Positions 2,351 to 51,588 of a stretch of DNA of 51,588 nucleotides are shown here, one piece after another. The notes beneath the pieces are model-generated. The model did not search any database and had not been told where the DNA came from. It saw only the letters and a program-made list of their open reading frames with translations. This DNA comes from an uncultured Planctomycetales bacterium. GTDB lineage: Bacteria > Omnitrophota > Gorgyraeia > Gygaellales > JAHJCI01. The first letter of the stretch is position 1. Each line of letters begins with the position of its first letter. A program made the position numbers and the translations under genes. The stretch spans positions 1 to 51,588 of the forward strand of contig CAZPQS010000001.1 of NCBI GenBank assembly GCA_964588765.1, read 5' to 3'.

Positions 2351-3790
2351 TTAAATTTTAAAAATATATTTAGACTTAGAGCTTATAATATCCTTTATTA
2401 AAAGAAATGCTCCTCTTGCTAAATTCACCAACTCGCGTAGAGACTTCAGATTTTTTAATCGGCGAATAAGGTAATCAATCCTTAAATAAAATGACCGGTT
2501 TATAACTGAGACCCACCTTTTGATGTCTGCTCTGGATATATCGGCAATATTTCTTTTAACAAAAGGCCTGTTATATGGATTAAGAATAAAAAAATCTTTT
2601 AAGTCATTGCAGGATATCTTTTTTCCGCCTATGGCATTTTTAGCCAAAATTGATTTGGGATCAGGAAGTAGTTCTCCGCAAAGGATAAAATCCGGCCTTA
2701 TCTCACTTAATAAATTCTTGGTTTCCTTAACTGTATGGTCATTTTCTCCAGATGAACCTATGAGAAGATAAGCTACAGTCCTAATCTTGGCCCTTCTAGT
2801 AATTTCAAAGGCAGTCTTAATATCGTTTAAATTTATTTGTTTATGTAAATTATTTAGAATATCCTGAGACCCGGACTCTACGCCATAAGAAATTATATAG
2901 CAACCTGCCTTAGCCATCACATTCAAAAGAGCGCTTGAAACTAAATCCACTCTTGTTTTGCAAGACCAAGCAAATCTGATATCCTCCTCTAAAATTCGCT
3001 CGCATAACTCCATAACTCTATCTGGATTAAAAGTGAAGTTAGTGTCTATGAAATGTATCTCTCTTATTTTAAATTTCTCTATTGCCTCCTTTATCTCTTC
3101 TATTACACTGTGAATAGCGCGCGCTCTTACCTCTCCAGACAAACAACAGAAATCGCAGTTATATATACAACCCCTGCTGGTCTCCATTAATGTCAGCGGC
3201 GGATATAAATTAAAAGGCGGGTGCATCCTGTAGTTTTTATTTGGCAGAAGATGCCTGGCTGGAAAAGGTAATCTATCCAAATCTAAATATGAAGGGGTGG
3301 GAGTAGAAACGATTCTGCCATTATCCTTGTATGAAATGCCAAAAATTTTTTCTAAATTACATAAGCGGCCTCCTTTCCTCATTTGTGTACACAAACTTAA
3401 CATGGCTTCTTCGCCTTCGCCCCTGACCAGTATATCAAAGTCTCCTCCTAAGCCGAAAATTGTCTCTGGCGAAAAACTATTGCAATGCCCTCCCAGGACT
3501 ATTCTTGAATCTGGATTTATGTGCTTCAACAATTTTACTATCTTCATACCCTCTGTTAAGTTGAACAGGCCGCAGCTCAAGCCACATATAGGGTAAGCAT
3601 TGTTTTTTAGATATTTCGGCAAATCTTCTGTTTTAATGTTCAAAGCCTGCATATCTAATATGCTTACGTCAAAATCGTGTTTCTCCAAGACAGAAGCAAT
3701 ATAAGCCAGTCCTAGAGGAGGAAGTGGATAAACGCCGCTTAAATTAAACCTGAACCTGGTTGAAGGTGGAGAAATTAAAAGTATCTTCAT
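2351..3790 (-). CDS. B12-binding (class B) radical SAM enzyme
   Basis: 479 aa. N-terminal Rossmann-like block MKILLISPP...PPLGLAYIASVL...ILVRGEGEE. Cluster motif SRGCIYNCDFC. Confidence 0.85.
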   Translation of the reverse strand: MKILLISPPSTRFRFNLSGVYPLPPLGLAYIASVLEKHDFDVSILDMQALNIKTEDLPKYLKNNAYPICGLSCGLFNLTEGMKIVKLLKHINPDSRIVLGGHCNSFSPETIFGLGGDFDILVRGEGEEAMLSLCTQMRKGGRLCNLEKIFGISYKDNGRIVSTPTPSYLDLDRLPFPARHLLPNKNYRMHPPFNLYPPLTLMETSRGCIYNCDFCCLSGEVRARAIHSVIEEIKEAIEKFKIREIHFIDTNFTFNPDRVMELCERILEEDIRFAWSCKTRVDLVSSALLNVMAKAGCYIISYGVESGSQDILNNLHKQINLNDIKTAFEITRRAKIRTVAYLLIGSSGENDHTVKETKNLLSEIRPDFILCGELLPDPKSILAKNAIGGKKISCNDLKDFFILNPYNRPFVKRNIADISRADIKRWVSVINRSFYLRIDYLIRRLKNLKSLRELVNLARGAFLLIKDIISSKSKYIFKI

Positions 3791-3814
3791 TGGCGTTGCG
3801 CTTTTTTATTTAGC

Positions 3815-5290
3815 TTATGTGTTTAATTTTGGCTTTTTTCTTTTTATTTTATTAATTAACATCTTAAAACCGCTATGCATTAATACGCATGCCCCATAAA
3901 AGAGAAATTTTAGAGAAATCCTTCTTTTAACTAAATTTCTCAGGACTATCTTTGGCCTCATGTAGTAAGAAAACATTGCCTTTCTCTGAAGGTCCTTTAA
4001 TTCTTTACTGCTCATCCCTTCGGGGGTATAGAGCAAATCTTCTGAATCAGAAAACCAGTCATACCAACTGTTATACTTATCAAGCTCTCCGGCCTTGTCT
4101 CTTCTATCAATATAAAGCTTAAATAATTCTGAGCCTGGATAGGGGATGGCTATATTGAATTTTACGAAATCACAATCTAATTCTTTGGCAAACCGAATTG
4201 TCTGCTCGCAAGTCTCTCTGGTCTCGCTGGGCATTCCCAGCATGAAAAGCCCTAAACTCATAAGCCCTGCCCTCTTGGTATATTTCATAGCCAGCCTTGC
4301 CTGCTCAATGGTAGTGCCTTTCCTTAATTTATTCAGAATCTCTTGATTACCGACCTCAAAACCGTACATCATCAGATATGCGCCAGCCTGTTTCATTTTC
4401 TTTAATAATTCAAAATTGACCAAATCAACCCTGGTTTCGGTAACCCATCTGACTTTTTTATGTAAACCGCGCTTGATGAATCTATTGCAAAACTCTAAGC
4501 CGAAGTTTATAGAGAAAGGGAAAAACGTATCGGTAAAACCGAAGTATCTTATCTTGTACCTCCCGTTCATATACTCAATTTCATCAATAATATTCTCCAG
4601 TCGCCTGTATCTGGGTTTTTTGTGAATCTTATCCTGGGTACAGAAGATGCACCTATAGGGACAACCCCGCGAGGCTAATATAACGGATGCCACCGAATTA
4701 TATATCGAGGCAAGAGGAACCTCGGTATAATTTTTAAGCTGGAGTAGGTGTAAAGCAGGATAAGGCAGGCTATCCAGATCTTCAATGGGTGCCCTGCCAG
4801 GATTATGATACACATTACCGTTATCGGTAAAGCTTATGCCTTCTAAACCACGCAAATCTTTACCTCTTTGAAGATAAGAAACTAATTCCAGCATACTGAT
4901 TTCGCCTTCGCCATGCACAACTATATCTGCAATTTTTTGTTTAAGCAGCTCATCCGCAAACAGCGAAGCATGGATGTTCCCTAAAACAATCCTGATGCTT
5001 CTATCATAATCTTTTATTCTACGTGCGAGTTTGCTTACATTATTCATGGTAGCGGTGAGACAGGAGAATCCGACCACGCCGGGCTTTTCGGCGATGATTC
5101 TTTCAAATAAAACATCTTTATTTATTCTCTCTGCTACTTGATCTATAATCGCTACCTCTATTCCATTCCTTTCTAAAAGGGCGGCGATGTATGTAATCCC
5201 TAAAGGGATTATGGGAGTAAGCAGTTCTCTTCTGAATCTCCGGCTAGACTCTACGGTTTCTGAATTCGGATTTATGAGCAACACTTTCAT
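3815..5290 (-). CDS. B12-binding (class B) radical SAM enzyme
   Basis: 491 aa. MKVLLINPN...IPLGITYIAALL...IVVHGEGE. Cluster motif SRGCPYRCIFC. Confidence 0.85.
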   Translation of the reverse strand: MKVLLINPNSETVESSRRFRRELLTPIIPLGITYIAALLERNGIEVAIIDQVAERINKDVLFERIIAEKPGVVGFSCLTATMNNVSKLARRIKDYDRSIRIVLGNIHASLFADELLKQKIADIVVHGEGEISMLELVSYLQRGKDLRGLEGISFTDNGNVYHNPGRAPIEDLDSLPYPALHLLQLKNYTEVPLASIYNSVASVILASRGCPYRCIFCTQDKIHKKPRYRRLENIIDEIEYMNGRYKIRYFGFTDTFFPFSINFGLEFCNRFIKRGLHKKVRWVTETRVDLVNFELLKKMKQAGAYLMMYGFEVGNQEILNKLRKGTTIEQARLAMKYTKRAGLMSLGLFMLGMPSETRETCEQTIRFAKELDCDFVKFNIAIPYPGSELFKLYIDRRDKAGELDKYNSWYDWFSDSEDLLYTPEGMSSKELKDLQRKAMFSYYMRPKIVLRNLVKRRISLKFLFYGACVLMHSGFKMLINKIKRKKPKLNT

Positions 5291-26588: not shown

Positions 26589-27077
26589 CTATTTATTAAA
26601 AACCTTGGCATTGGCCCAGACTACATATGAAGAACTTATTCCGTTATCTTTCACAATTAAGGTCAGTTGCTTTACATCCTTAACTGTCAGGTCAAGTTCC
26701 TCGGAATCACCGGCTCTCATCATTGCACTTTCGTAAATCTTTTTTCCATCTGCCAGCACTGTAAATTTGAGCTTACCCTTATATTCCGGGAAATCGTCGT
26801 GGTGCCCGATTACGCATTTAAAGTAATCGTATTCCCCGTCCAAATCATAGGTAAGCTCGGAATTAGAACTGACGCATAAACCTTTCTTAAATTCGCTCCC
26901 CTGAACGGTAATTAGAACTCCCTCCTCGTCCATATCCTTTAGATAATCGCCTGTGCTATAGAGAGGCTCTAAATCGCTAAGATAGGTCTGGAATGTAGCT
27001 TCACCGGTAGTCCTCTGTCCGCAAGAAATCACCAGAAACATGGACATGCAAAGCATTAACATTATAATCTTTCTCAT
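26589..27077 (-). CDS. Lipoprotein with NPCBM-like carbohydrate-binding domain (copy 1)
   Basis: 162 aa. Lipobox LVISC. YLSDLEP...KKGLCVSSNSELTYDL...YFKCVIGHHDD...KFTVLADGK...VVWANAKV matches the NPCBM/NEW2 pattern. Confidence 0.6.
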   Translation of the reverse strand: MRKIIMLMLCMSMFLVISCGQRTTGEATFQTYLSDLEPLYSTGDYLKDMDEEGVLITVQGSEFKKGLCVSSNSELTYDLDGEYDYFKCVIGHHDDFPEYKGKLKFTVLADGKKIYESAMMRAGDSEELDLTVKDVKQLTLIVKDNGISSSYVVWANAKVFNK

Positions 27078-27610
27078 TTCCCACCCCCTTTCTTTTTATG
27101 TCATCTTCCAACCTTGGCATTGGCCCAGACTACATATGAAGAACTTATTCCGTTATCTTTCACAATTAAGGTCAGTTGCTTTACATCCTTAACTGTCAGG
27201 TCAAGTTCCTCGGAATCACCGGCTCTCATCATTGCACTTTCGTAAATCTTTTTTCCATCTGCCAGCACTGTAAATTTGAGCTTACCCTTATATTCCGGGA
27301 AATCGTCGTGGTGCCCGATTACGCATTTAAAGTAATCGTATTCCCCGTCCAAATCATAGGTAAGCTCGGAATTAGAACTGACGCATAAACCTTTCTTAAA
27401 TTCGCTCCCCTGAACGGTAATTAGAACTCCCTCCTCGTCCATATCCTTTAGATAATCGCCTGTGCTATAGAGAGGCTCTAAATCGCTAAGATAGGTCTGG
27501 AATGTAGCTTCACCGGTAGTCCTCTGTCCGCAAGAAATCACCAGAAACATGGACATGCAAAGCATTAACATTATAATCTTTCTCATTTCCCACCCCCTTT
27601 CTTTTTATGT
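26601..27610. repeat. Perfect tandem duplication: a 501-bp unit (26601-27101 and 27110-27610) separated by 8 bp (catcttcc)
   Basis: I compared the two units base by base by eye and saw no mismatch. The period is 509 bp. Each unit carries nearly the whole lipoprotein CDS plus 24 nt of upstream sequence with a purine-rich Shine-Dalgarno (AAGGGGGTGGG). Confidence 0.9.
27101..27586 (-). CDS. Lipoprotein with NPCBM-like carbohydrate-binding domain (copy 2)
   Basis: 161 aa. Identical to copy 1 except for the last residues (…KVGR versus …KVFNK). Confidence 0.6.
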   Translation of the reverse strand: MRKIIMLMLCMSMFLVISCGQRTTGEATFQTYLSDLEPLYSTGDYLKDMDEEGVLITVQGSEFKKGLCVSSNSELTYDLDGEYDYFKCVIGHHDDFPEYKGKLKFTVLADGKKIYESAMMRAGDSEELDLTVKDVKQLTLIVKDNGISSSYVVWANAKVGR

Positions 27611-34180: not shown

Positions 34181-36295
34181 CTAGGGATCTTGACCATTTC
34201 TTAAATTAAGCAGCAACGGTAATTTGGCAGAGCCGTAAGCTTTCAGGTCAAATTCACTAAAATCAACGGAATCTCTGATTCTCTTATCTGGGGCAATATC
34301 CGATATCCTGCTTTCGGATTTTATATATTTTCCATTTTTATAAATGGCTATATTGGGCAGCGATTCATATTCTGTCCCGGTATTTACCGTATTTAAAATT
34401 CTGGGAAGGGTCGATTCCTCTTGCGCAAAGACGATAATGTCTACTGCTCCCGGAGGAATTAACCCATATACATCTTCATTTTCAAAAATTGACCCCAGAA
34501 AAATAGTAAAAACGAAAGGGTTATATTTTTTAAGAAGCGAACTTAATTTCAGAGAAAATATAAGATTCTCCCTGCTTATTAAAAAACAAAATTTATTTGT
34601 CTCTGCCGAAATCAACTCCTCCGATAATTTAAAGAATTCCTCCTCTAATGAATTAAATAAATATGAAAGCTCATGCTTAAAGCTCCAGCGATACCAGTTC
34701 CGGGAGTCCCATAGGGGCTTTAATTCTTTCGGAACGCGCTGATATAAAATGATATTCAAATCATAAACTAAAGGGCTAAATTCTCTGTTACCGCGCAGAG
34801 AAGAAAACATGGAAGCTAATCTCAAAGGTATTAAATCTGTCCTTGCCGGAGGAGAGAAAAATAAAGCCGCGGTTTTTTTACTGCTGTAGTCTTTTAATCC
34901 CGGCTGGTTCACTATTACAATGGGAATCTCAAAATTAGAGATTACAAAAATAGTTTTTCTTACCCGCTTGAGCCTCCCGGTGAGGTCTAATTCGTTTTCA
35001 TCCAGAAAGAAATTTAAATCCCTTTGCCTGGAAGGCAATTTAATCCTGAATTCCTGAAGATTTCTACCTATTCTTGAGGCAAGCATTATAACAAAAGAAG
35101 ATACATTGGTAATCTCGGAGATATGGTCTTTATTCCTTTTAATAAAAGACAGAGTCTCTTGAAAATCCTCTTCTGTTTCTCCGGGAAAACCGACAATTAT
35201 ATTCAGCGCCGTTTGTATGCCGGCTTCATGCGTAGCCCTGATTACCATTTCTGCATCTTCCGAGGCATAGAATTTATCCATTCTCTTAAGCGTGCGGTTA
35301 CATCCGCTTTCTACCCCATAGCACAGCCATGCGCAGCCTGCCTTCTTCATCTTCTTTAGTAATTTTAAATCCATATCTTTACGGATCATCGCATAGCTTC
35401 CCCAGGTAATATTAAGACCGGACTCAATAATTAGTTGACAGAGTTTTTCTAATTGTTTTAAATTGCCGTTGCAGATTAAATCGTTGAATGAAAAATTATT
35501 TATTTTATTTGTGTGTATATGGTATCTGATTTCATCGACAATCTTCTCGGGCGCCCGATATCGATAATTGCCACACATCAAGTGGTCAATGCAGAAAACA
35601 CATCTTCCAATACAGCCCCGGCTGATTAAAATAGGAATTACCCTTTCCTTATATGAACTGAGTGCGAAATCAGAAAATGTAGGAGAAGATAACTTATCAA
35701 TATCCTGCGTATAAAAAGCTTCAGCCGGCCTTAAGAACTCTTCCTTTTTATAAATCACGCCTCTAATATCATCAAATGCTTTATTATTCTTATAATTGCT
35801 GACTATTTTCTCTAACGCCTCTTCGCCCTCTCCGATAACAAGTGCATCAATCGCTCCGCGGTCATCCGGAAATATGAGCCGGCGGTCGTGCTCCCAAAAA
35901 CAGCCCGTTCCGCCAAAGATAATTATTTTATTTTTATCTTTCTTTTTTATTAAGGTCGCGATTTTAGCAGCAAGACCTATACTGGCGATATTAACCGAAA
36001 AACCCACTAAATTACAATCTACAGAGATTACTTCATTTACCAATGCCTCTATCTCTTCCCGGAAGGCATTAAATATCCTGGAGGTAATTTCGTAGGGAGG
36101 CATAGAGTTGATATTGCATATCTCCCAAAAAAATCTTTTTTCAGGAGAAGCCTTTCGATACAGGGTCAAATTGAAATCCAACATCTTAGACCCAAACCCC
36201 CTGGATTTCAAATGTTCGCAGATATAAGCCAAACCCAAAGGCGGCATCCTTGGTTCCCAAGGCGGAGCCATTATTAAGATTACGTCGTAATTCAT
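34181..36295 (-). CDS. B12-binding class-B radical SAM enzyme with an extra C-terminal B12-domain-like region
   Basis: 704 aa. PPLGLAYICEHL, VIGEGEE, SRGCIGRCVFC (C227/231/234). Residues ~475-704 resemble a second B12-type N-domain but have no following rSAM core. Confidence 0.8.
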   Translation of the reverse strand: MNYDVILIMAPPWEPRMPPLGLAYICEHLKSRGFGSKMLDFNLTLYRKASPEKRFFWEICNINSMPPYEITSRIFNAFREEIEALVNEVISVDCNLVGFSVNIASIGLAAKIATLIKKKDKNKIIIFGGTGCFWEHDRRLIFPDDRGAIDALVIGEGEEALEKIVSNYKNNKAFDDIRGVIYKKEEFLRPAEAFYTQDIDKLSSPTFSDFALSSYKERVIPILISRGCIGRCVFCIDHLMCGNYRYRAPEKIVDEIRYHIHTNKINNFSFNDLICNGNLKQLEKLCQLIIESGLNITWGSYAMIRKDMDLKLLKKMKKAGCAWLCYGVESGCNRTLKRMDKFYASEDAEMVIRATHEAGIQTALNIIVGFPGETEEDFQETLSFIKRNKDHISEITNVSSFVIMLASRIGRNLQEFRIKLPSRQRDLNFFLDENELDLTGRLKRVRKTIFVISNFEIPIVIVNQPGLKDYSSKKTAALFFSPPARTDLIPLRLASMFSSLRGNREFSPLVYDLNIILYQRVPKELKPLWDSRNWYRWSFKHELSYLFNSLEEEFFKLSEELISAETNKFCFLISRENLIFSLKLSSLLKKYNPFVFTIFLGSIFENEDVYGLIPPGAVDIIVFAQEESTLPRILNTVNTGTEYESLPNIAIYKNGKYIKSESRISDIAPDKRIRDSVDFSEFDLKAYGSAKLPLLLNLRNGQDP

Positions 36296-40700: not shown

Positions 40701-42049
40701 TTAATCTCTTTAAAATAAGGGTCGCTTTTGGGGATAGATTTCGCCTTATATCTAAATTGCTGATAATCCTCTGAGTTCCATATATCTAAAAAATTATTAC
40801 TGTAAATATTGCCCAGGGGCTTAAATACTGCTTTACAGCAGGGAATGACTTCGCCCGTGGATAGAACCCGCGAGTAAGTCCAGCCTACATAGCAGGGAAG
40901 ATTATCGATTACATTCTTTTCATAAGTCTGTTCGTATATATTACTTGAATTTAATCGACGTAAAAAAGAACCGAAACTGAATATTTTTAAAAAATTAAAA
41001 TTAATATTTCTATTTTCATCAACCGGGCAGAGTCTCTTAAATTCCGGACACTCTTGGCAGCTGTCTTTAGGAAACTTAAACGTTAATTTATTATCAACCT
41101 CATTAACCAAAGGATTCACTTTCGTAGATAAAGTAGCAAACCCCTTGGGGCATATCAGGGAATGCATAGCCTCCCTCTCGTCCTTGTCCCCCTGCTTTGT
41201 CCATTCTTTTAAAAAGAAATTCGGATACATCCGCATAAAGCGGCCGGGGAATTCCTTCAATTCTGCCTCCTGGGGGGATTTAAAATCAGATAATCCCAAC
41301 TCCTTAAAGTATAAATCGCGCCGTTTGGCCAAAGCCTCAAATTGCTCTTTAATTGTTCTTGCCTGTTCAGCAGATAAGGCCAAAAATGAAGTCTCGCCCT
41401 CAATGATATCCATTACCTGAAATTCAATAAGTTCAGCTTGAGTATCTATGGCAGAACTGATCATCTGCTGAATCTCTTTATAATTTAAATTGCAAATTAC
41501 GTTATAAATTTTTACATGGGGAAGATATTTATTTCGTTCAATCTTGAGTTCGGAAATACGCTGAAGATTATTTTTTATTTCATAGAAATCTTTCTCTTTT
41601 TTGCTGGGATGGGTTTTTATATACGTCTGCGGAGAAGCAGCCCAGATGCTGGCGGTAATCATATCTACGCCCAAATCTATAATCCTCTTTGCCTTCTCTT
41701 CGTTAATCAGGGTAAAATTGGTAATTATGTTGAGTCTCAACCCTTTATTTTTTATCAATTCTATGATTTCTAAAATATCGGGATGCAGAAATGGCTCGCC
41801 TGCTCCGGAAAGAAAAATTTCTTCTGTTCCCAAGCGGGATAGGTCTTCGATTAGTCTCTTAACTTTTATGAAGGGCAAGGTTAAATTTTTATCGCGCGGC
41901 GGATTTTTTATAAAAGGAGAATGCACCCAGCAGCCAATGCAGTCATTATTACATTTACCGTTAAGGTCAATCTGAACAATTTTTGGCCCGATAAATGCGC
42001 TCCGGCCGTCTTTTATACCCTTTAGTATCAGCTGGTTAATTTTCTCCAT
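37724..42049 (-). CDS. Triple SPASM/twitch-type radical SAM fusion with an internal CBM-like beta-sandwich insert
   Basis: 1441 aa. CNNDCIGCW (C33/37/40), CNNNCIGCW (C704/708/711), CNEKCIGCW (C1107/1111/1114). Each is followed by GxGEPF[LM]HP, TNF[TS]L[IL]N, ..TY..THP, NVI.NLNY, PCY.GW and C-x3-CD[ND]. Confidence 0.85.
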   Translation of the reverse strand: MEKINQLILKGIKDGRSAFIGPKIVQIDLNGKCNNDCIGCWVHSPFIKNPPRDKNLTLPFIKVKRLIEDLSRLGTEEIFLSGAGEPFLHPDILEIIELIKNKGLRLNIITNFTLINEEKAKRIIDLGVDMITASIWAASPQTYIKTHPSKKEKDFYEIKNNLQRISELKIERNKYLPHVKIYNVICNLNYKEIQQMISSAIDTQAELIEFQVMDIIEGETSFLALSAEQARTIKEQFEALAKRRDLYFKELGLSDFKSPQEAELKEFPGRFMRMYPNFFLKEWTKQGDKDEREAMHSLICPKGFATLSTKVNPLVNEVDNKLTFKFPKDSCQECPEFKRLCPVDENRNINFNFLKIFSFGSFLRRLNSSNIYEQTYEKNVIDNLPCYVGWTYSRVLSTGEVIPCCKAVFKPLGNIYSNNFLDIWNSEDYQQFRYKAKSIPKSDPYFKEINCYKSCDNVGMNLQIKESIFMDQKDKGPDYQFYRREEMAGEDNLPDAEIRLIVPAHTFESGNLNTQDHNFGEGIVIDGGCGFGFAEYRIAVSETGQYGLWSYYASKDTRPVELYFDGNLIKKRAMSSTTPDWEKKDFRWFEEAGLHILEGEHTLKIYTKGPIPHLHSFALLKGARSNPPRVKKYSFEDIYQYPSSLRLLRDKVKTRGFVNTVFKLFNYIRSGRFAKNYLDMLGIFNGRYAFKGPFHVQIDLTNNCNNNCIGCWCNSPLLEEKTLPPQEKKRTLPFGLVKELLDELSQMGTKEIYFSGGGEPFMHPEIMSILTYAKKKGFNCYVNTNFTLLNKENIRRLIDLGVEHLTVSTWSATGKTYALTHPNKNKETFKQIKENLIFLNRSKIQTPYIKLYNVIFNLNYHELKDMVYLAQETGSESVEFTLIDIVPGKTDKLILNSDQIKRLQNDAQQIAECIDRRGYLDGVLLFRFDSFLRRICSSLDLSKATYDRNIINKIPCYIGWCFSRIMPNGDVNACLKAHRIPTGNLYQQSFSHIWNDERQQYFRKKTLVYEKKDPFFYLIGNDPDIKETGCYKSCDDIGRNIYMHNRIMSLTAIERNLLKIVSKIKQKPNLNPDLQKRSENLVISGIINGREAFTGPEQVVIDITNRCNEKCIGCWLYSPLLKQRPDSRWLRQEINFSRARSLINELADLGTKRIRFTGGGEPFMHPKIMELIEYTKTRGLICCLTTNFSLLNKQMVRDLIRLRVDELAISLWASNEKTYAKTHPCAPERIFGNIKENLKILSNEKKDKPFVTLCNVICNLNYSEIKQMFDFALDLMVDGVYFTLIDTIEGATDSLLLDEEQKQAALKQAEQIQGLQQGQKKRIKLDYFDGFIWRLKGEGVLAGNYDQHRINQIPCYAGWIFARILADGAIVPCCRGVKKPMGNINEHNFKDIWLSQKYNEFRSKAKYLSKSDSYFSEIGCLKMCDNLMHNEQMHLRLNKQL

Positions 42050-44390
42050 TTAAATACCGCTCTCTTTTTACCCAGACAAATCTTAAATAGTCCAATGTTT
42101 TATGAACCGCGGATTTAAAACCGTATCTAAGCAGATAATCCTTGAATCTTATCATATCGCCCAGGAGGCCTCTTTTTCTTCTTTTATGGTCTCCCCATAA
42201 TAGATATGCACGCCTCTTGCCCTTTTCCAAATCCCGGGGGATTAAGTTATCGGGTTGAAATACACAATGATAGTGACCATCGTAGTTAGACCAATCCTTG
42301 GTTAAAATCCTGCCCTGCTTGTCTAACTCTTCAAAGAGCCTCGTTCCGGGAAAAGGCGTGAGTATAGAGAATTGCGCCGAATCGGTATTTAAACTTAAGG
42401 CATAATCTATGGTTCTCTGAATGCTGTCTCTTGTCTCTCCGGGCAGACCGAAGGTAAAGGTAAGGTGAATTCTTATTCCTAAATTCTTGGTTATCTTTAT
42501 TATCCTGTCAGTCCTTTTAAAATCCATATTCTTCTGGCAACTATCCAATAATTTCTTGCATACCGACTCAACGCCGTACTTGACCGACCAAAGGCCGGCT
42601 GATTTCATCTCGCTCAGAATCCTCTCGTCCATTAAATCCGGCCTGGCCATTATAGCCCAAGGGACATTCTGTAAATCTCTCTCTCTTATTAGCTGAGAAA
42701 GCTTCAGCATTCTTTCTTTGCCGATATTAAATGTATCGTCATCGAAATAAACGGATTTAAATTTCCTTTCTTTTACTAAATATTCCATCTCATCAACTAC
42801 TTCATTTATGTTCCGTGTTCTATAAAGATTATTTTGATATAAAACCTGCGGCCAGAGACAAAAATTACAACCAAAGGGGCAGCCGCGCGAAGCAAGCATT
42901 TGAACCGAGGGGAAAGGAATATCTCCCGGTAGGTCCCAGTATTTATCCATAGGCAGCTGTTCCCGCTCAGGCCACGGCAAAAGATTAATATCGAACGGGC
43001 GGTATTCAGTATTTTTAATAACCTTGTTATCCATACGATAAATTAATCCTTTCGGCTTAGATAAATCTTTATTTTCCTGCAGGCTTTTGATTAACTCCAA
43101 TAAACTAAATTCATATTCTCTGCACAAAACAAAATCTATGAATAAATGTTCTTTTAGAAACTGCGGTTTATAAATCTCTGAGTTGGGCCCGCAGAGAATT
43201 ACGGAAATCCCTGTCTTATGGATCTTCTCCAACAGATTTAAATCATCATAATATGAAGGAACGGAGGTCTCCGCAACCAGATAATCAAAATCCATCGCTA
43301 AAATTCTCTCCATAAAAATATCTTCGGGGATTTGTTCAGCGACAGCATCGATTACATGTGCTTCGATATTATGTTTCCGCAACAGAGAAGTGGCATAGGC
43401 AAGAAAGAATGGAAAGGGTAAATAAAGACCTTCGCTTTCGTCTTTAATATGCGGCCAACGGGAGCCTGCGCGCACTCCCCATTTGCCATTCCTTTGCCAG
43501 GGAAGATTAACCAATACGACCTTTAATTTTCGCTTTGATTCTTTATCTCTTGCTCCATGGTCAACTGTTTTCTCTGAAAAATCTTTACGCAGGTTCTCCA
43601 TCTTAATATCCAACAAATAATCGTCTTTGAACAAATTGATTGTGCCGCTGAAAAGATGATGATACCCGGGAGAATAATACCTATTTCCCTCAAGGCCTGT
43701 ATGCCTGAAGCCGACAATATGGGTTTTGAAAGCCGAAGGGGGATTCTGTATAAAAGAAAACCAATTTTTATCCTGGGTTTGCAACATAAACGAGGGTAAA
43801 GGCATACCCTCGAGCGGAAATCTTGCCCCGACTAAAGAATTCGGATGATTGCTTAAATATAAATCATGCCAATTATTATCCGAACCAAGGAAATCTGCCT
43901 GCTGGCAGTCGTCAAACCAAGTCTTATAATAATAATTGGCTAAACCCGCTATACGGAATTCATTGATATATAACCATTCTTCTATATCGGCATCTATCTT
44001 CAGGTCTATCTCTTGCTCATCTTTTATATTTATACTCCAAATCTGGCTAAGGGGTAAATCTTTAAAAATTACCTTAACATTAAAATGGTCTATCCCTTCT
44101 TCCAGAATCTGCCAATCCGCATGAGAAGAATCTGTCCATAATCCTAAAGTATTAATTCCTACATTTAGACCCAGCGCTTCAGAATTATTGCAAAAAATAT
44201 CTATTCCATGCTCAGAGCAGGTTATTTTCAGGTTTCCCTTTTTAATTATCGCCTCGCTTGATAAATTAATTTTACATATCCGTTTCTTAATTGAAAACAG
44301 AAAATATTTTATTCCTCTGCGGAAGGCAAAGGATAAACCTCCGTTATCAAAATGTTTTTTAAATCTTTGATAATTGGCCCCGATGTTCAT
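42036..44390 (-). CDS. HADWQI-domain protein fused to a B12-binding class-B radical SAM enzyme
   Basis: 784 aa. The N-terminal ~265 aa are homologous to the C-terminus of 36297..37727. This is followed by GVRAGSRWPH...PFPFFLAYA and SRGCPFGCNFC. Confidence 0.8.
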   Translation of the reverse strand: MNIGANYQRFKKHFDNGGLSFAFRRGIKYFLFSIKKRICKINLSSEAIIKKGNLKITCSEHGIDIFCNNSEALGLNVGINTLGLWTDSSHADWQILEEGIDHFNVKVIFKDLPLSQIWSINIKDEQEIDLKIDADIEEWLYINEFRIAGLANYYYKTWFDDCQQADFLGSDNNWHDLYLSNHPNSLVGARFPLEGMPLPSFMLQTQDKNWFSFIQNPPSAFKTHIVGFRHTGLEGNRYYSPGYHHLFSGTINLFKDDYLLDIKMENLRKDFSEKTVDHGARDKESKRKLKVVLVNLPWQRNGKWGVRAGSRWPHIKDESEGLYLPFPFFLAYATSLLRKHNIEAHVIDAVAEQIPEDIFMERILAMDFDYLVAETSVPSYYDDLNLLEKIHKTGISVILCGPNSEIYKPQFLKEHLFIDFVLCREYEFSLLELIKSLQENKDLSKPKGLIYRMDNKVIKNTEYRPFDINLLPWPEREQLPMDKYWDLPGDIPFPSVQMLASRGCPFGCNFCLWPQVLYQNNLYRTRNINEVVDEMEYLVKERKFKSVYFDDDTFNIGKERMLKLSQLIRERDLQNVPWAIMARPDLMDERILSEMKSAGLWSVKYGVESVCKKLLDSCQKNMDFKRTDRIIKITKNLGIRIHLTFTFGLPGETRDSIQRTIDYALSLNTDSAQFSILTPFPGTRLFEELDKQGRILTKDWSNYDGHYHCVFQPDNLIPRDLEKGKRRAYLLWGDHKRRKRGLLGDMIRFKDYLLRYGFKSAVHKTLDYLRFVWVKRERYLNGEN

Positions 44391-45775
44391 TCTTTCAGAC
44401 TGCCTTTGGCGTTTCTCTCAAATAGATACTCCTGCCAACTTTCATAGGCATACCTAAGCGCTCCTTCTAAATCCTCTGGCGAAAGATTATCTGTCTTAAT
44501 CACTGCCCGGCTGTAACCATCGTAATCCTGCCAATTCTTATTTACTATATAGCCCTTCTCATCCAGCATCTGGAAATACCTGCTGCCGGGAAAGGGAGTA
44601 GCTATGGAAAACTGGAGCGAATCAGGTTCAAGCAGCAAAGCAAAATCGATAGTTTTCTTTATGGTATCCTTTGTTTCGCCGGGAAGGCCAAACATAAAGG
44701 TTAAATGGACGTTTATCCCGAGTTGTTTGGTAATCTCTACCGTCTCTGCGACCTTGCTTAAGTCAAGATTCTTGCCTGAATTATTAATCAATTCTTGGGC
44801 ACCGGATTCGACTCCGTATTTTACTGCTCGCAATCCGGAATCAGCCATAGCCTTTAAAACCTCTTCATCTAAAATATCTACCCTGGCCATAATTGCCCAG
44901 GGAGTATTTAATCCCCTTTTCGTTATCTGCCGGCAGATGTTTAAAGTCCTTTCTTTTCCCATACCGAATATATCGTCATCAAAGTATATGGAATTGAATT
45001 TCTCCTCCTTTATTAAATATGCCATCTCGTCAACTACGTCCACGGGGCCCCGCATCCTATATAGATTTTCTCTATACATTATTTGGGGCCAGGCGCAGAA
45101 TATGCACTGATATGGGCAACCCCGGCTTGCCAGCATCTGGGCAGTAGGTCTCGGCAATATACGCGGCAAATCTTCATACCCGTCCTTAGGCAAGAAATGC
45201 CTTGCCGGCCAGGGGAGATTGTCTAAATCCTTGAGAGGTGACCGATAGGGATTATCGTTTATGGCACCCTGAGAATCGCTATAAATAAGTCCTAATATCT
45301 TATTTAAACCTGTACCTGCGTTAAGGCATTGGGCTAACTCTAAAAGAGTATACTCGTATTCTCCTTTAAGTATAAAATCCACAAAATCGTATTGTCCGAG
45401 GAAATCCCTGTTATACATACCGTAGTGCAGGCCGCAAAAGACAATTTTGGCTGCCGGGCCCAAATCTTCCCGCAGACGCTTAGCCGTCTCTAAATCCGCA
45501 TTCAGGGATAATGTGGACACCTCTAAGACTATTAAGTCGGGACGGAAAATCTTAATCCGGTTAAAAAAATCCGCTTCATCCATCCTTTCGGCGACTCCAT
45601 CGACCAGAAGGACGTCAAAATTATTTCTCTCTAAAAGCGCGGCGGCATAAGCCAAGAAAAACGGAAATGGCATATAGCGATGGTGTTCTTCTTCAAAATG
45701 CGGCCAGCGGGAACCTGCCCTTACCCCGTAATATCCTTTCTTTTTCCAGGGTGCATTACCTAAGAAAATCTTCAC
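44387..45775 (-). CDS. B12-binding class-B radical SAM enzyme (close paralog of the C-terminal part of 42036..44390)
   Basis: 462 aa. GVRAGSRWPH, PFPFFLAYA, SRGCPYQCIFC. GTG start with AGGAAGGA upstream. ATGA overlap with the downstream gene. Confidence 0.85.
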   Translation of the reverse strand: MKIFLGNAPWKKKGYYGVRAGSRWPHFEEEHHRYMPFPFFLAYAAALLERNNFDVLLVDGVAERMDEADFFNRIKIFRPDLIVLEVSTLSLNADLETAKRLREDLGPAAKIVFCGLHYGMYNRDFLGQYDFVDFILKGEYEYTLLELAQCLNAGTGLNKILGLIYSDSQGAINDNPYRSPLKDLDNLPWPARHFLPKDGYEDLPRILPRPTAQMLASRGCPYQCIFCAWPQIMYRENLYRMRGPVDVVDEMAYLIKEEKFNSIYFDDDIFGMGKERTLNICRQITKRGLNTPWAIMARVDILDEEVLKAMADSGLRAVKYGVESGAQELINNSGKNLDLSKVAETVEITKQLGINVHLTFMFGLPGETKDTIKKTIDFALLLEPDSLQFSIATPFPGSRYFQMLDEKGYIVNKNWQDYDGYSRAVIKTDNLSPEDLEGALRYAYESWQEYLFERNAKGSLKE

Positions 45776-50664: not shown

Positions 50665-51588
50665 TTAGCCTTCCACTTCCGTAAATGCCTTCTCATCATC
50701 AACGCGCCCATCGAGTGAAGACATTGAGACACAGTTTATACAGCACGGCTTAGTCAATCTTCCGCTTATTAATTCTTTCCTCAATTGTTTATATTGAATA
50801 TTGTTCCATATGTCATCCAAAGAAGCCTCTATTATATTCCCGAATGCCTCCTGGCTGAACCAGAATTCGCATGGTCTAATTTTTCCATAGCAATCTGCTA
50901 CCATAAGATACCAGGGATAACGACACTTTGGTTCGCCGATACCGGGAGGATGCTTTTCTGAATCTTGCTTATCTTTGCTTTCTATGCCGATAGTAAATTT
51001 GTCGGGGAGCCGTTCTATCTCGATGCCGAGTTCCCCTGCTTTTTTAGGAATCTTTTCAAGGAACTCATTTGCTAATTGCTTATAATGAAACAAAGACTCG
51101 CCTTTCATTCGTACGGCATCCTTAAAAATAATAACGTGAAAGAATCCGACTTTTGTCCCCCCGATTCCTTTAATAAACTCCAAATAATCTTCTACATGCT
51201 CAATATTAGAACGCATAAGCAAACAGTTGAAATTTACTTCAGGATATCCCGTCCCCCATTTTTGTTTTAACCGGTTTAGCATTTCGATATTCCCGACAAC
51301 CTTTTCAAAATTAGAGCCGATTTTTATCCCTTCATAAATTTCCTTAATATGGGAATCGAAGGAGATGAGCAGTCTTTTTGTCTTTGTCTGTATAAGCCCT
51401 GCCGCAATTTCTTCCGTCAGCAAGGTCGCATTGGTCATTAACCAAAAGTATGGAATTTCATATTGTCTGATTACTTTAAGCAGCTCGGCAAAATCTTGAT
51501 GAAATAAGGGCTCGGTACACGGAGAGAGGGCCAATTCTGAGGCATAGGGAAACATATTTTCGGCAAGTTTTTTGAAATCATCCAATTT
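50665..51588 (-). CDS. Radical SAM/SPASM-type enzyme, 5'-partial (N-terminus and cluster motif lie beyond the window edge)
   Basis: The reading frame stays open to base 51588, and the track's initial M is a TTG. The ELALSPCTEPLFH block is equivalent to GGEPL. The C-terminal SPASM-like pattern is C-x12-G-x4-C ... CC-x2-C. Confidence 0.7.
   Translation of the reverse strand, partial: KLDDFKKLAENMFPYASELALSPCTEPLFHQDFAELLKVIRQYEIPYFWLMTNATLLTEEIAAGLIQTKTKRLLISFDSHIKEIYEGIKIGSNFEKVVGNIEMLNRLKQKWGTGYPEVNFNCLLMRSNIEHVEDYLEFIKGIGGTKVGFFHVIIFKDAVRMKGESLFHYKQLANEFLEKIPKKAGELGIEIERLPDKFTIGIESKDKQDSEKHPPGIGEPKCRYPWYLMVADCYGKIRPCEFWFSQEAFGNIIEASLDDIWNNIQYKQLRKELISGRLTKPCCINCVSMSSLDGRVDDEKAFTEVEG

Follow-up and report, generated by a model that had tools for sequence, protein, structure and literature searches.

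An unannotated domain common to radical SAM proteins and Wzt-type polysaccharide exporter ATPases in Omnitrophota

Introduction

Two proteins encoded in the window (the whole 51,588-nt stretch of DNA analyzed here), P0001 (784 aa) and P0002 (476 aa), have in common a domain of ~215 residues, termed domain X. X is chiefly found at the C-terminal end of polysaccharide ABC-exporter ATPases of the Wzt type, as a tail of 2–6 tandem copies. An earlier note on this DNA had taken X for a substrate-recognition module that recruits class-B radical SAM (rSAM) enzymes; this is too narrow a description, since most X copies form tandem arrays on an exporter ATPase. The presence of X on both the exporter pump and rSAM enzymes suggests that both are tied to the same sugar polymer. 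A galactose-mutarotase-like β-supersandwich fold is predicted for X, and we consider it reasonably likely that X binds a nascent glycan and targets enzymes and exporter to it.

ABC-transporter-dependent glycan export is known from a few proteobacterial models and Aquifex. In those models, Wzt has a single jelly-roll domain, by which a cap (methyl, phosphomethyl, or Kdo) is recognized. This domain is Wzt_C (PF14524), and the known Wzt proteins are those of Escherichia coli O9a, Raoultella terrigena, and Aquifex aeolicus (WzmWzt, PDB 7k2t/8dku). [quoted passage not shown] According to PMC11231755, no carbohydrate-binding module has been identified in a terminator enzyme other than the one predicted in that paper.

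Domain X in P0001 and P0002

The genes for P0001 (42036–44390) and P0002 (36297–37727) both lie on the minus strand. The homologous stretches are residues 44–272 of P0001 (43575–44261, minus strand; HMM envelope, AlphaFold2, Foldseek) and residues 259–476 of P0002 (36300–36953, minus strand; HMM envelope, hhalign). These limits are HMM envelopes, and the domain coordinates proposed in the earlier note agree with them. BLASTP aligns the two proteins with 24% identity over 188 residues (E 1e-11), and this alignment contains all four motif pairs of the end-to-end alignment that had been drawn by inspection of the translations. The homology is also supported by profile–profile comparison, which had been named beforehand as the refuting test: hhalign of P0001-family X (n = 35) against P0002-family X (n = 10) gave a probability of 99.7% and an E value of 6.1e-27 over 209 columns. 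X had no match in Pfam (E up to 10) or NCBIfam, or in a PDB sequence search with both family profiles, and no description of the domain was found in the literature. X is a real domain and, as in the earlier note, is assigned to no named family.

The consensus of the central motif is SKADWQI in the P0001 family and STQADWQI in the Wzt copies; HADWQ with His is, among the aligned P0001-family proteins, peculiar to the copy in the window. The 13-mer GCCAATCCGCATG, which encodes H-A-D-W-(Q), was found exactly twice, at the two positions reported earlier (36794 and 44111), with 0 occurrences expected by chance. Recent exchange or gene conversion was rejected as its source: identical residues and few codon choices explain the 13-mer trivially (where the residues agree, the codons would also agree by chance in ~1 of 16 cases), and it is not evidence of recent exchange because the P0001 and P0002 proteins are only 24% identical. 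Conserved residues of X are W42, A48, W50, P70, E101, Y112, and W115 (numbering of the modeled segment; addition of 43 gives P0001 numbering). A D-S pair in W-x-D-S-x-x-A-x-W is near-invariant. Aldose 1-epimerases have a catalytic His/Glu set; X has an invariant Glu (E101) and no invariant His. The X copies within the source genome have only 19–41% mutual identity. An HMM scan of the six-frame translation of the window, including the unassigned C-terminal 300 aa of a 704-aa protein encoded next to P0002, detected no third copy.

As first noticed, the domain order differs between the two proteins: in P0001, X lies N-terminal to a GVRAGSRWPH-type rSAM, whereas P0002 begins with a cluster-less rSAM domain and ends with X. 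The description of the two fusions as opposite in orientation is true of the polypeptides but masks a shared layout, in which the coding sequence of X is followed immediately downstream by that of a B12-type rSAM.

P0001 and Its Neighbors

The N-terminal 43 residues of P0001 (44262–44390, minus strand) include a basic amphipathic helix at about residues 17–43, recognized by its helical hydrophobic moment (up to 1.5). This segment is kept in most homologues, and the helix is possibly a peripheral membrane anchor. Downstream of X, residues 293–784 with the stop codon (42036–43512, minus strand) form an HpnJ/AprD4-like rSAM catalytic part (PF04055, TIGR03471, 6fd2). The rSAM core is present (PF04055, E 3e-20), with GVRAGSRWPH at residues 304–313 and CxxxCxxC at residues 504–511. 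PF02310, the N-terminal B12-binding Rossmann domain, has no reported match in P0001 itself; many P0001 homologues have one, as does a 462-aa paralogue, a GVRAGSRWPH-type B12-rSAM without X, whose gene (44387–45775, minus strand) has a 4-nt overlap with the start of P0001.

The closest characterized relatives of both the P0001 catalytic part and the 462-aa neighbor are AprD4 and HpnJ, which are sugar-directed rSAM enzymes with a B12-type N-domain. AprD4 (6fd2) is the best PDB relative of the P0001 catalytic part (E 8e-25), and the HpnJ model TIGR03471 is the best NCBIfam match. However, the scores for this equivalog (217 bits for P0001, 264 bits for the 462-aa protein) are far under its cut-off of 577.6, and neither of the known enzymes has X.

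P0002 and the 704-aa B12-rSAM

Residues 1–258 of P0002 (36954–37727, minus strand) are a degenerate rSAM domain and linker, as indicated by PF04055, alignment with paralogues, the model, and Foldseek. The PF04055 match (E 1.5e-6, 28.9 bits) is just under the gathering cut-off of 29.5. The barrel is retained, with five β-α units in the model, and the B12 domain is absent; Foldseek matches of this part include TsrM, MgmA, AprD4, and OxsB. P0002 is paralogous to the rSAM modules of a 1315-aa protein (35%, E 7e-29) and of the 704-aa protein (34%, E 3e-25). CxxxCxxC is absent from P0002 and from every aligned member of its family; in the paralogue alignment, the cluster loop reads CIGRCVFC in the paralogue and CWQRIN in P0002, with a 3-residue deletion.

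The earlier note had called the 476-aa protein a remnant. Loss of the B12 domain and of CxxxCxxC, together with the PF04055 score just under the gathering cut-off, would suit a decaying pseudogene whose X has no present function. Such decay is scarcely credible, as P0002 is not a one-off: its length, its start, intact frames, and the same lost cluster motif recur across a family of at least 15 sequence clusters, in which P0002 is joined by nine other clusters at 90% and five other representatives at 50%, with 33–69% identity. Against decay, too, are the kept synteny with a 704-like gene and the AlphaFold pLDDT of 84 for the P0002 model. The identities of 33–69% also exclude the relatives being assembly copies of one population. 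Judged by this sequence conservation, also put at 41–69% identity, P0002 is a member of a conserved family of cluster-less rSAM pseudoenzymes.

The probable partner of P0002 is the 704-aa B12-binding rSAM (34181–36295, minus strand; PF02310 and PF04055). The junction of the two genes is TAA-A-ATG, with a single nucleotide between the P0002 stop codon and the start codon of the 704-aa gene. The gene pair is adjacent in four related loci (L001, L002, L003, and L038); the window, L001, and L003 share the 1-nt spacing, whereas stop and start overlap as TAATG in L038. This arrangement indicates, at the level of the genes, that P0002 is translationally coupled to the 704-aa B12-rSAM. A programmed +1 frameshift at the window junction (CCC-TAA-A-ATG) that would fuse P0002 to the 704-aa protein was rejected because the last sense codon varies (GAA in L003, CCT in L001, and AAA with TAATG in L038). 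Rejected likewise was an origin of the P0002/704-aa pair as a boundary-shifted duplicate of the 462/784-aa pair: P0002 is paralogous to the 704/1315-type modules, and its rSAM half is only weakly related to the GSRWPH type (E 7e-4).

X Arrays on Wzt-Type ATPases

Contig C61 of the source genome encodes a 913-aa protein (Wzt-3X) with an NBD at residues 1–235, followed from residue 236 by three X domains. The NBD is nearest to A. aeolicus Wzt (E 4e-69) and then to TagH/TarH. Pfam matches of the 913-aa protein are to ABC_tran/AAA models only, and PF14524 is not among them. Contig C61 probably abuts the window: an rSAM-SPASM gene is 5′-truncated at the window edge (50665–51588, minus strand), and its missing N-terminus is apparently at the end of C61. 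In the source genome, P0001 is not beside Wzt, from which it is separated by about ten genes and the contig break.

A profile search of 1.84 billion representatives gave 613 proteins with X, and the architecture of an NBD followed by 2–6 X domains was present in at least 65 of 147 newly listed proteins. All named matches are from Omnitrophota or from mislabeled PVC MAGs; to date, X has been met in Omnitrophota only. In all related loci with upstream DNA (23/23), X repeats directly precede the X-rSAM gene; in 17 loci, where the gene is complete, these repeats belong to an NBD-bearing Wzt gene. An ABC-2 permease lies ahead of Wzt in the three loci tested (3/3), and in L038 an O-antigen-ligase-like gene is found two genes upstream of the permease.

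Other architectures include GT39/PMT_2 with 2–4 X domains, an intact B12-rSAM with two, and single chains of an NBD, five X domains, and rSAM-SPASM; P0063 and P0200 join NBD, X repeats, and rSAM. On enzymes of the same operon, single X copies are N-terminal, C-terminal, or encoded by a separate small ORF (stand-alone in L028, L034, L037, and L045).

Predicted Fold of X

The AlphaFold2 model of P0001 X (pLDDT 92.8, pTM 0.89) has 18 β strands and a C-terminal helix. All top Foldseek matches of this model are galactose-mutarotase-like domains (E 2e-6 to 1e-3), the best being FpGalNase (8x1b, E 2e-6, TMq 0.66); further matches are OpgG/OpgD/MdoD, GH38 C-terminal domains, GalM, LacZ domain 5, the GH36 N-domain, and the YidC P1 domain. 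A separate full-length model of P0002 matched the same supersandwich structures. The likeness is moderate (TMq 0.55–0.67, identity <10%; over the two independent models, TMq spans 0.45–0.67), and Pfam and PDB profile searches revealed no sequence or profile relationship of X to any galactose-mutarotase-like family. X is also shorter than the enzymes of this fold and, unlike glycoside hydrolases, is found in a cytoplasmic exporter/rSAM setting. The YidC P1 domain has the same fold and is no sugar binder. The conserved residues of X may belong to the core instead of forming a binding site.

Proposed Role of X

A glycan-binding role of X fits the predicted galactose-mutarotase-like fold. It also fits the partners to which X is joined in the sequences, which are Wzt ATPases of polysaccharide exporters, rSAM enzymes with sugar-acting nearest characterized relatives, and GT39 glycosyltransferases. 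In the proposed mechanism, X would bind an undecaprenyl-linked nascent surface glycan, or its tailored terminal residue, at the cytoplasmic face of the membrane. X on P0001 would tether an HpnJ/AprD4-like rSAM to the polymer; the basic N-terminal helix may help to keep the enzyme membrane-associated. The X array on Wzt would recognize the same polymer for export. P0002 would be a paralogue of the 704/1315-type B12-rSAM modules without catalytic activity, in which X is kept and the B12 domain and two of three cluster cysteines are gone. Made in step with the 704-aa B12-rSAM, it probably supplies X in trans as a non-catalytic targeting subunit, a role suggested by the conserved adjacency and translational coupling of the two genes.

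Instead of touching the glycan, X may be a protein–protein docking module, by which X on an enzyme binds X or another surface of the Wzt tail and exporter and tailoring enzymes would come together as a single machine at the membrane. Within one operon, the exporter and several enzymes carry the same domain, P0063 and P0200 carry NBD, X repeats, and rSAM in one chain as if proximity mattered, the YidC P1 domain of the same fold has no known sugar role, and known Wzt carbohydrate-binding domains dimerize (PMC9445017). We nevertheless regard docking as unlikely, as nearly all structural neighbors of X are domains of carbohydrate-active proteins and several of its invariant residues are aromatic (W, W, Y, W), a typical feature of sites that bind sugars. 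Fusions of X to GT39-type GT-C enzymes speak against docking too, since the soluble domains of this class usually lie across the membrane. Moreover, X stands at the exact position on Wzt of the carbohydrate-binding domain (PMC9445017).

That X is itself catalytic, for example as a mutarotase/epimerase-like enzyme or an OpgD-like glycanase acting on the polymer, is very improbable. The fold does include enzymes (GalM, hexose-6-phosphate mutarotase, and OpgD/OpgG), and invariant E101 and the near-invariant D-S pair could be read in the same way; however, X has ~215 aa compared with ~340 aa for mutarotases, it matches no enzyme-family profile even at E up to 10, and its tandem arrangement on a transporter ATPase (2–6 copies) is uncommon among catalytic domains and in keeping with multivalent binding. 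Recognition of a target other than the chain, such as the polyprenyl-diphosphate carrier or a primer, would agree with all the partners of X, as Wzt, the rSAM tailoring enzymes, and the GT-C transferases each handle a polyprenyl-linked intermediate. This seems very improbable, given that the structural matches of X include no known lipid-binding members of the fold, and that the 19–41% identity of X copies within the genome is more divergence than one invariant carrier predicts.

Binding of the nascent glycan by X remains the preferred reading, and a more specific form of it can be put forward tentatively, although we hold it to be rather doubtful: the X-rSAM encoded after wzt would be the writer of a chain-terminating cap, the X array of Wzt its reader, and dead rSAM paralogues X-bearing adaptors.

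Comparison With Known Systems

In the source genome and in most relatives, X copies begin at residue ~235 behind an NBD of the Wzt type, where the carbohydrate-binding domain of known Wzt proteins is placed (PMC9445017), and the X loci have, as in known systems, a Wzm permease and glycan-assembly genes. NBD-adjacent X is represented by the paralogues on C61 and by at least 65 representatives, whereas both window copies sit on rSAM proteins. X differs from Wzt_C in that it has no PF14524 match at E up to 10, is modeled as a ~215-aa supersandwich rather than a ~150-aa jelly roll that forms a strand-swapped dimer, occurs in 2–6 tandem copies rather than one, and is also present on tailoring enzymes. 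No Wzt carbohydrate-binding domain was among the top 50 Foldseek matches of X.

As with WbdD and Wzt of E. coli O9a/O8, an enzyme that would modify the glycan and an exporter that would recognize it are encoded together. However, the presumed modifying enzymes here are rSAM proteins, whereas WbdD is a kinase/methyltransferase with a coiled-coil ruler; in addition, one putative recognition domain is common to enzyme and exporter here, and the termination role is only putative. A further analogy, and only that, is with the RiPP recognition element (RRE; PqqD-like, with rSAM maturases such as PqqE), a substrate-recognition module that is likewise fused to an rSAM or is the product of a separate adjacent gene: X is fused in P0001, a stand-alone ORF elsewhere, and placed on a dead paralogue in P0002. 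The fold of X is unrelated to that of the RRE, and its substrate is presumed to be a glycan, not a peptide.

Significance

What sets this case apart is a different, unannotated fold at the reader position of Wzt, in multiple copies and common to presumed polymer-tailoring enzymes. Proteins with X are at present labeled only "radical SAM protein," "ABC transporter ATPase," or "hypothetical," and a definition of the family would improve the annotation of ~600 protein clusters. To our knowledge, the action of radical SAM enzymes on cell-surface polysaccharides has hardly been explored; X may serve as a marker of rSAM enzymes that act on the exported glycan, allowing the ~18 rSAM modules in the operon to be sorted and guiding the choice of constructs for heterologous reconstitution. 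P0002, in which a conserved cluster-less rSAM is joined to X, would exemplify a pseudoenzyme retained as a targeting subunit. If the cap-writing and cap-reading roles are true, dead rSAM paralogues such as P0002 would be X-bearing adaptor subunits for further rSAM enzymes, and Omnitrophota would gate glycan export by radical modification of the terminal sugar (for example, C-methylation, deoxygenation, or ring contraction), with writer and reader sharing one recognition fold.

Domain X in P0001 and P0002

About 35 genes on the minus strand, arranged as one long operon, make up the window, and two of them encode domain X: P0001 (42036–44390, minus strand; 784 aa), in which X precedes a radical SAM (rSAM) module of the GVRAGSRWPH type, and P0002 (36297–37727, minus strand; 476 aa), in which X follows a cluster-less rSAM module. 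The two proteins share 24% identity over 188 residues (E 1e-11), and this alignment contains all of the motif pairs that the earlier note had quoted. Related clusters were gathered, 42 for the N-terminal region of P0001 and nine for the C-terminal region of P0002, X was excised from both sets, and the separate alignments were compared profile against profile. The claim of a shared domain survives this comparison, since the two profiles match with a probability of 99.7% (E 6e-27) over 209 columns. HMM envelopes place X at residues 44–272 of P0001 and 259–476 of P0002. The 13-mer reported to be common to both copies indeed occurs exactly twice, and is simply accounted for by the identity of the H-A-D-W residues, for which codon choice is limited; in the aligned P0001-family proteins, His at the HADWQ position is found only in the window copy, the consensus being SKADWQI. 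X thus represents a genuine domain family that is conserved and lacks annotation.

Residues 1–43 of P0001 (44262–44390) contain a conserved basic amphipathic helix before X, with a hydrophobic moment of up to 1.5. Some homologues lack this helix, perhaps only because their start codons have been called too far downstream. Elsewhere in the operon (26589–27586), two adjacent NPCBM/NEW2-domain proteins of 161 and 162 aa have identical Pfam scores; by annotation, a second putative carbohydrate-binding module appears to be duplicated there.

Predicted Fold of X

As the earlier note had held, X could not be assigned to a named family: searches of Pfam (E up to 10), NCBIfam and PDB sequences gave no match. 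An AlphaFold2 model of X built with a 35-sequence alignment is very confident (pLDDT 92.8, pTM 0.89) and consists of 18 β strands followed by one helix. Foldseek matches in the PDB are throughout to one fold, the galactose-mutarotase-like β-supersandwich, and include the N-domain of the Flavonifractor galactosaminidase 8x1b (E 2e-6, TMq 0.66), OpgG/OpgD/MdoD, GH38 C-terminal domains, GalM and other mutarotases, LacZ domain 5, GH36 N-domains and the YidC P1 domain, with less than 10% identity to X in all cases. In an independent full-length model of P0002 (pLDDT 84.1), the C-terminal half matches the same supersandwich structures and the N-terminal half matches the B12-type rSAM enzymes TsrM, MgmA, AprD4 and OxsB. 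By its predicted fold, X groups with galactose-mutarotase-like domains without a detectable sequence relationship.

P0002, a Conserved Cluster-less rSAM Protein

P0002 had been described as a remnant, but fifteen clusters have the same length and the same start, with 33–69% identity, and this conservation contradicts a decaying pseudogene. In its N-terminal half, P0002 is a paralogue of rSAM modules in the 1315-aa protein (35% identity, E 7e-29) and in the 704-aa protein encoded directly downstream (34% identity, E 3e-25), and matches the GSRWPH type weakly (E 7e-4). The alignment with the paralogues begins at strand β1, the entire B12 domain being absent, and the cluster loop CIGRCVFC of the paralogues is replaced by CWQRIN with a three-residue deletion, so that only the first cluster cysteine remains. 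Loss of the cluster motif and of the B12 domain is kept across the P0002 family, and the P0002 model retains five β–α units. Cys189, Cys206 and Cys212 of P0002 are specific to the cluster-less family, invariant or nearly so, and are located in a low-confidence region of the model (residues 190–236); they could serve as ligands of a metal, or of a cluster that has nothing to do with the one lost from the rSAM module. P0111 is a variant of this family with two X copies.

A B12-rSAM gene like that for the 704-aa protein directly follows the P0002-type gene in the window and in loci L001/L002, L003 and L038; the two genes meet as stop–1 nt–ATG in three cases and overlap as TAATG in another. A programmed frameshift was rejected because the last sense codon varies between loci, and the junction is read as translational coupling.

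X in Wzt-Type Exporters and Other Proteins

A domain-profile search finds five X copies in the genome of the window: two in the window and three in tandem on contig C61, in a 913-aa Wzt-type ABC ATPase (Wzt-3X; L009, 134–2875). The closest solved relative of its ATPase domain is Aquifex aeolicus Wzt (E 4e-69), followed by TagH/TarH and mycobacterial RfbE. The X repeats start at residue 236; in characterised Wzt proteins, a cap-reading carbohydrate-binding domain is attached at this position, after the nucleotide-binding domain (NBD) (PMC9445017, PMC11231755). The X of P0002 is 31–36% identical to the Wzt repeats and 24% identical to the X of P0001. On C61, the Wzt-3X gene is followed by genes for a GT4 glycosyltransferase, a 594-aa B12-rSAM and a 395-aa rSAM-SPASM protein.

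At the end of C61 (L009, 7052–7213), an rSAM gene breaks off after 54 codons, which include the cluster motif (…CNLGCRMCHFGFKQDKPAYPH), and the window edge holds a 5′-truncated rSAM-SPASM gene (50665–51588, minus strand; KLDDFKKLAENMF…). Because the alignment of the joined halves with paralogues runs through the junction, the two contigs are probably neighbours, with the Wzt-3X gene as the likely head of the window operon, about ten genes ahead of P0001; the join is deduced from the split gene.

Of 25 loci with P0001-like proteins, 23 have upstream DNA, and in every one of these the X-rSAM gene is directly preceded by X repeats; in the 17 with a complete upstream gene, the repeats are part of an NBD-bearing Wzt protein. 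The window genome at first seems exceptional in that a 462-aa X-less GSRWPH rSAM, not X repeats, precedes P0001; given the probable join to C61, however, its Wzt-3X gene would belong to the same operon. In four loci (L028, L034, L037, L045), X is a separate ORF of 243–304 aa between wzt and the GSRWP rSAM gene (product about 503 aa in three loci, 970 aa in L045), which suggests repeated gene fission or fusion at the X/rSAM junction. An ABC-2 permease gene directly precedes wzt in all three cases examined. Upstream of wzm, an O-antigen-ligase-like (Wzy_C) gene occurs in L038 only (2547–5016) and a flavin amine-oxidase-like gene in both L038 (2547–5016) and L030 (2825–4315); such a gene set would fit an LPS-type pathway.

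When 1.84 billion representative proteins were searched with the domain profile, 613 matched at E < 0.001, 296 of them below 1e-30. At least 65 of 147 newly listed proteins combine an NBD with 2–6 X copies; others among the 147 combine X copies with rSAM, one (P0173) has an intact B12-rSAM with two X copies, and several are GT39/PMT_2 proteins with 2–4 X copies. The GT39/PMT_2-type GT-C glycosyltransferases P0060, P0102, P0195 and P0199 (MBF0331189.1) carry 2–4 X copies at the C-terminus, and X may therefore act on the periplasmic side too. Single chains consist of an NBD, five X copies and rSAM-SPASM in P0063 (RKY36779.1, 1856 aa), and of an NBD, two X copies and two rSAMs in P0200 (1217 aa); as predicted from domain content, exporter ATPase and tailoring enzyme are joined in one polypeptide. 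An intein appears to be inserted in P0008, a 1236-aa P0001 homologue from a JGI metagenome, because its precomputed Pfam list includes PF14528 and PF14890. All X-bearing records with a name are from Omnitrophota ('ABC-type polysaccharide/polyol phosphate transport system ATPase', 'glycosyltransferase family 39', 'radical SAM protein'), and X is present in 57 of 301 sampled genomes of the phylum, over several classes.

Proposed Role of X

The analysis establishes the homology, predicted fold, fusion partners, synteny and loss of the P0002 cluster motif, whereas the role of X is deduced; we favor, with some reservation, glycan binding. On the cytoplasmic face of the membrane, X would bind either the lipid-linked glycan or the end of it that has been tailored, and would thereby tether P0001 to its polymer substrate. 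The catalytic part of P0001 has HpnJ and AprD4, both sugar-directed, as its closest relatives, and the N-terminal helix of P0001 may help to keep the protein at the membrane. The array of X copies on Wzt would enable the exporter to recognise the same polymer, and the 704-aa enzyme would receive its X in trans from P0002. The main rival, that X is a protein–protein docking module assembling the enzymes on the exporter, is rather unlikely. A catalytic X is less likely than docking and quite improbable, and recognition of the lipid carrier is marginally more so.

In its position on Wzt and its proposed function, X is comparable to the Wzt_C carbohydrate-binding domain, but matches it in neither sequence nor fold and is therefore not a Wzt_C member. 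The X loci recall the polymerase–terminator–exporter logic of Escherichia coli O9a, whereas the enzymes here are radical SAM proteins that have the exporter's recognition module in common. Apart from one predicted case, terminator enzymes are not known to contain carbohydrate-binding modules (PMC11231755). No paper describing domain X or these loci was found in the literature. X would belong among the recognition modules in ABC-transporter-dependent glycan export.
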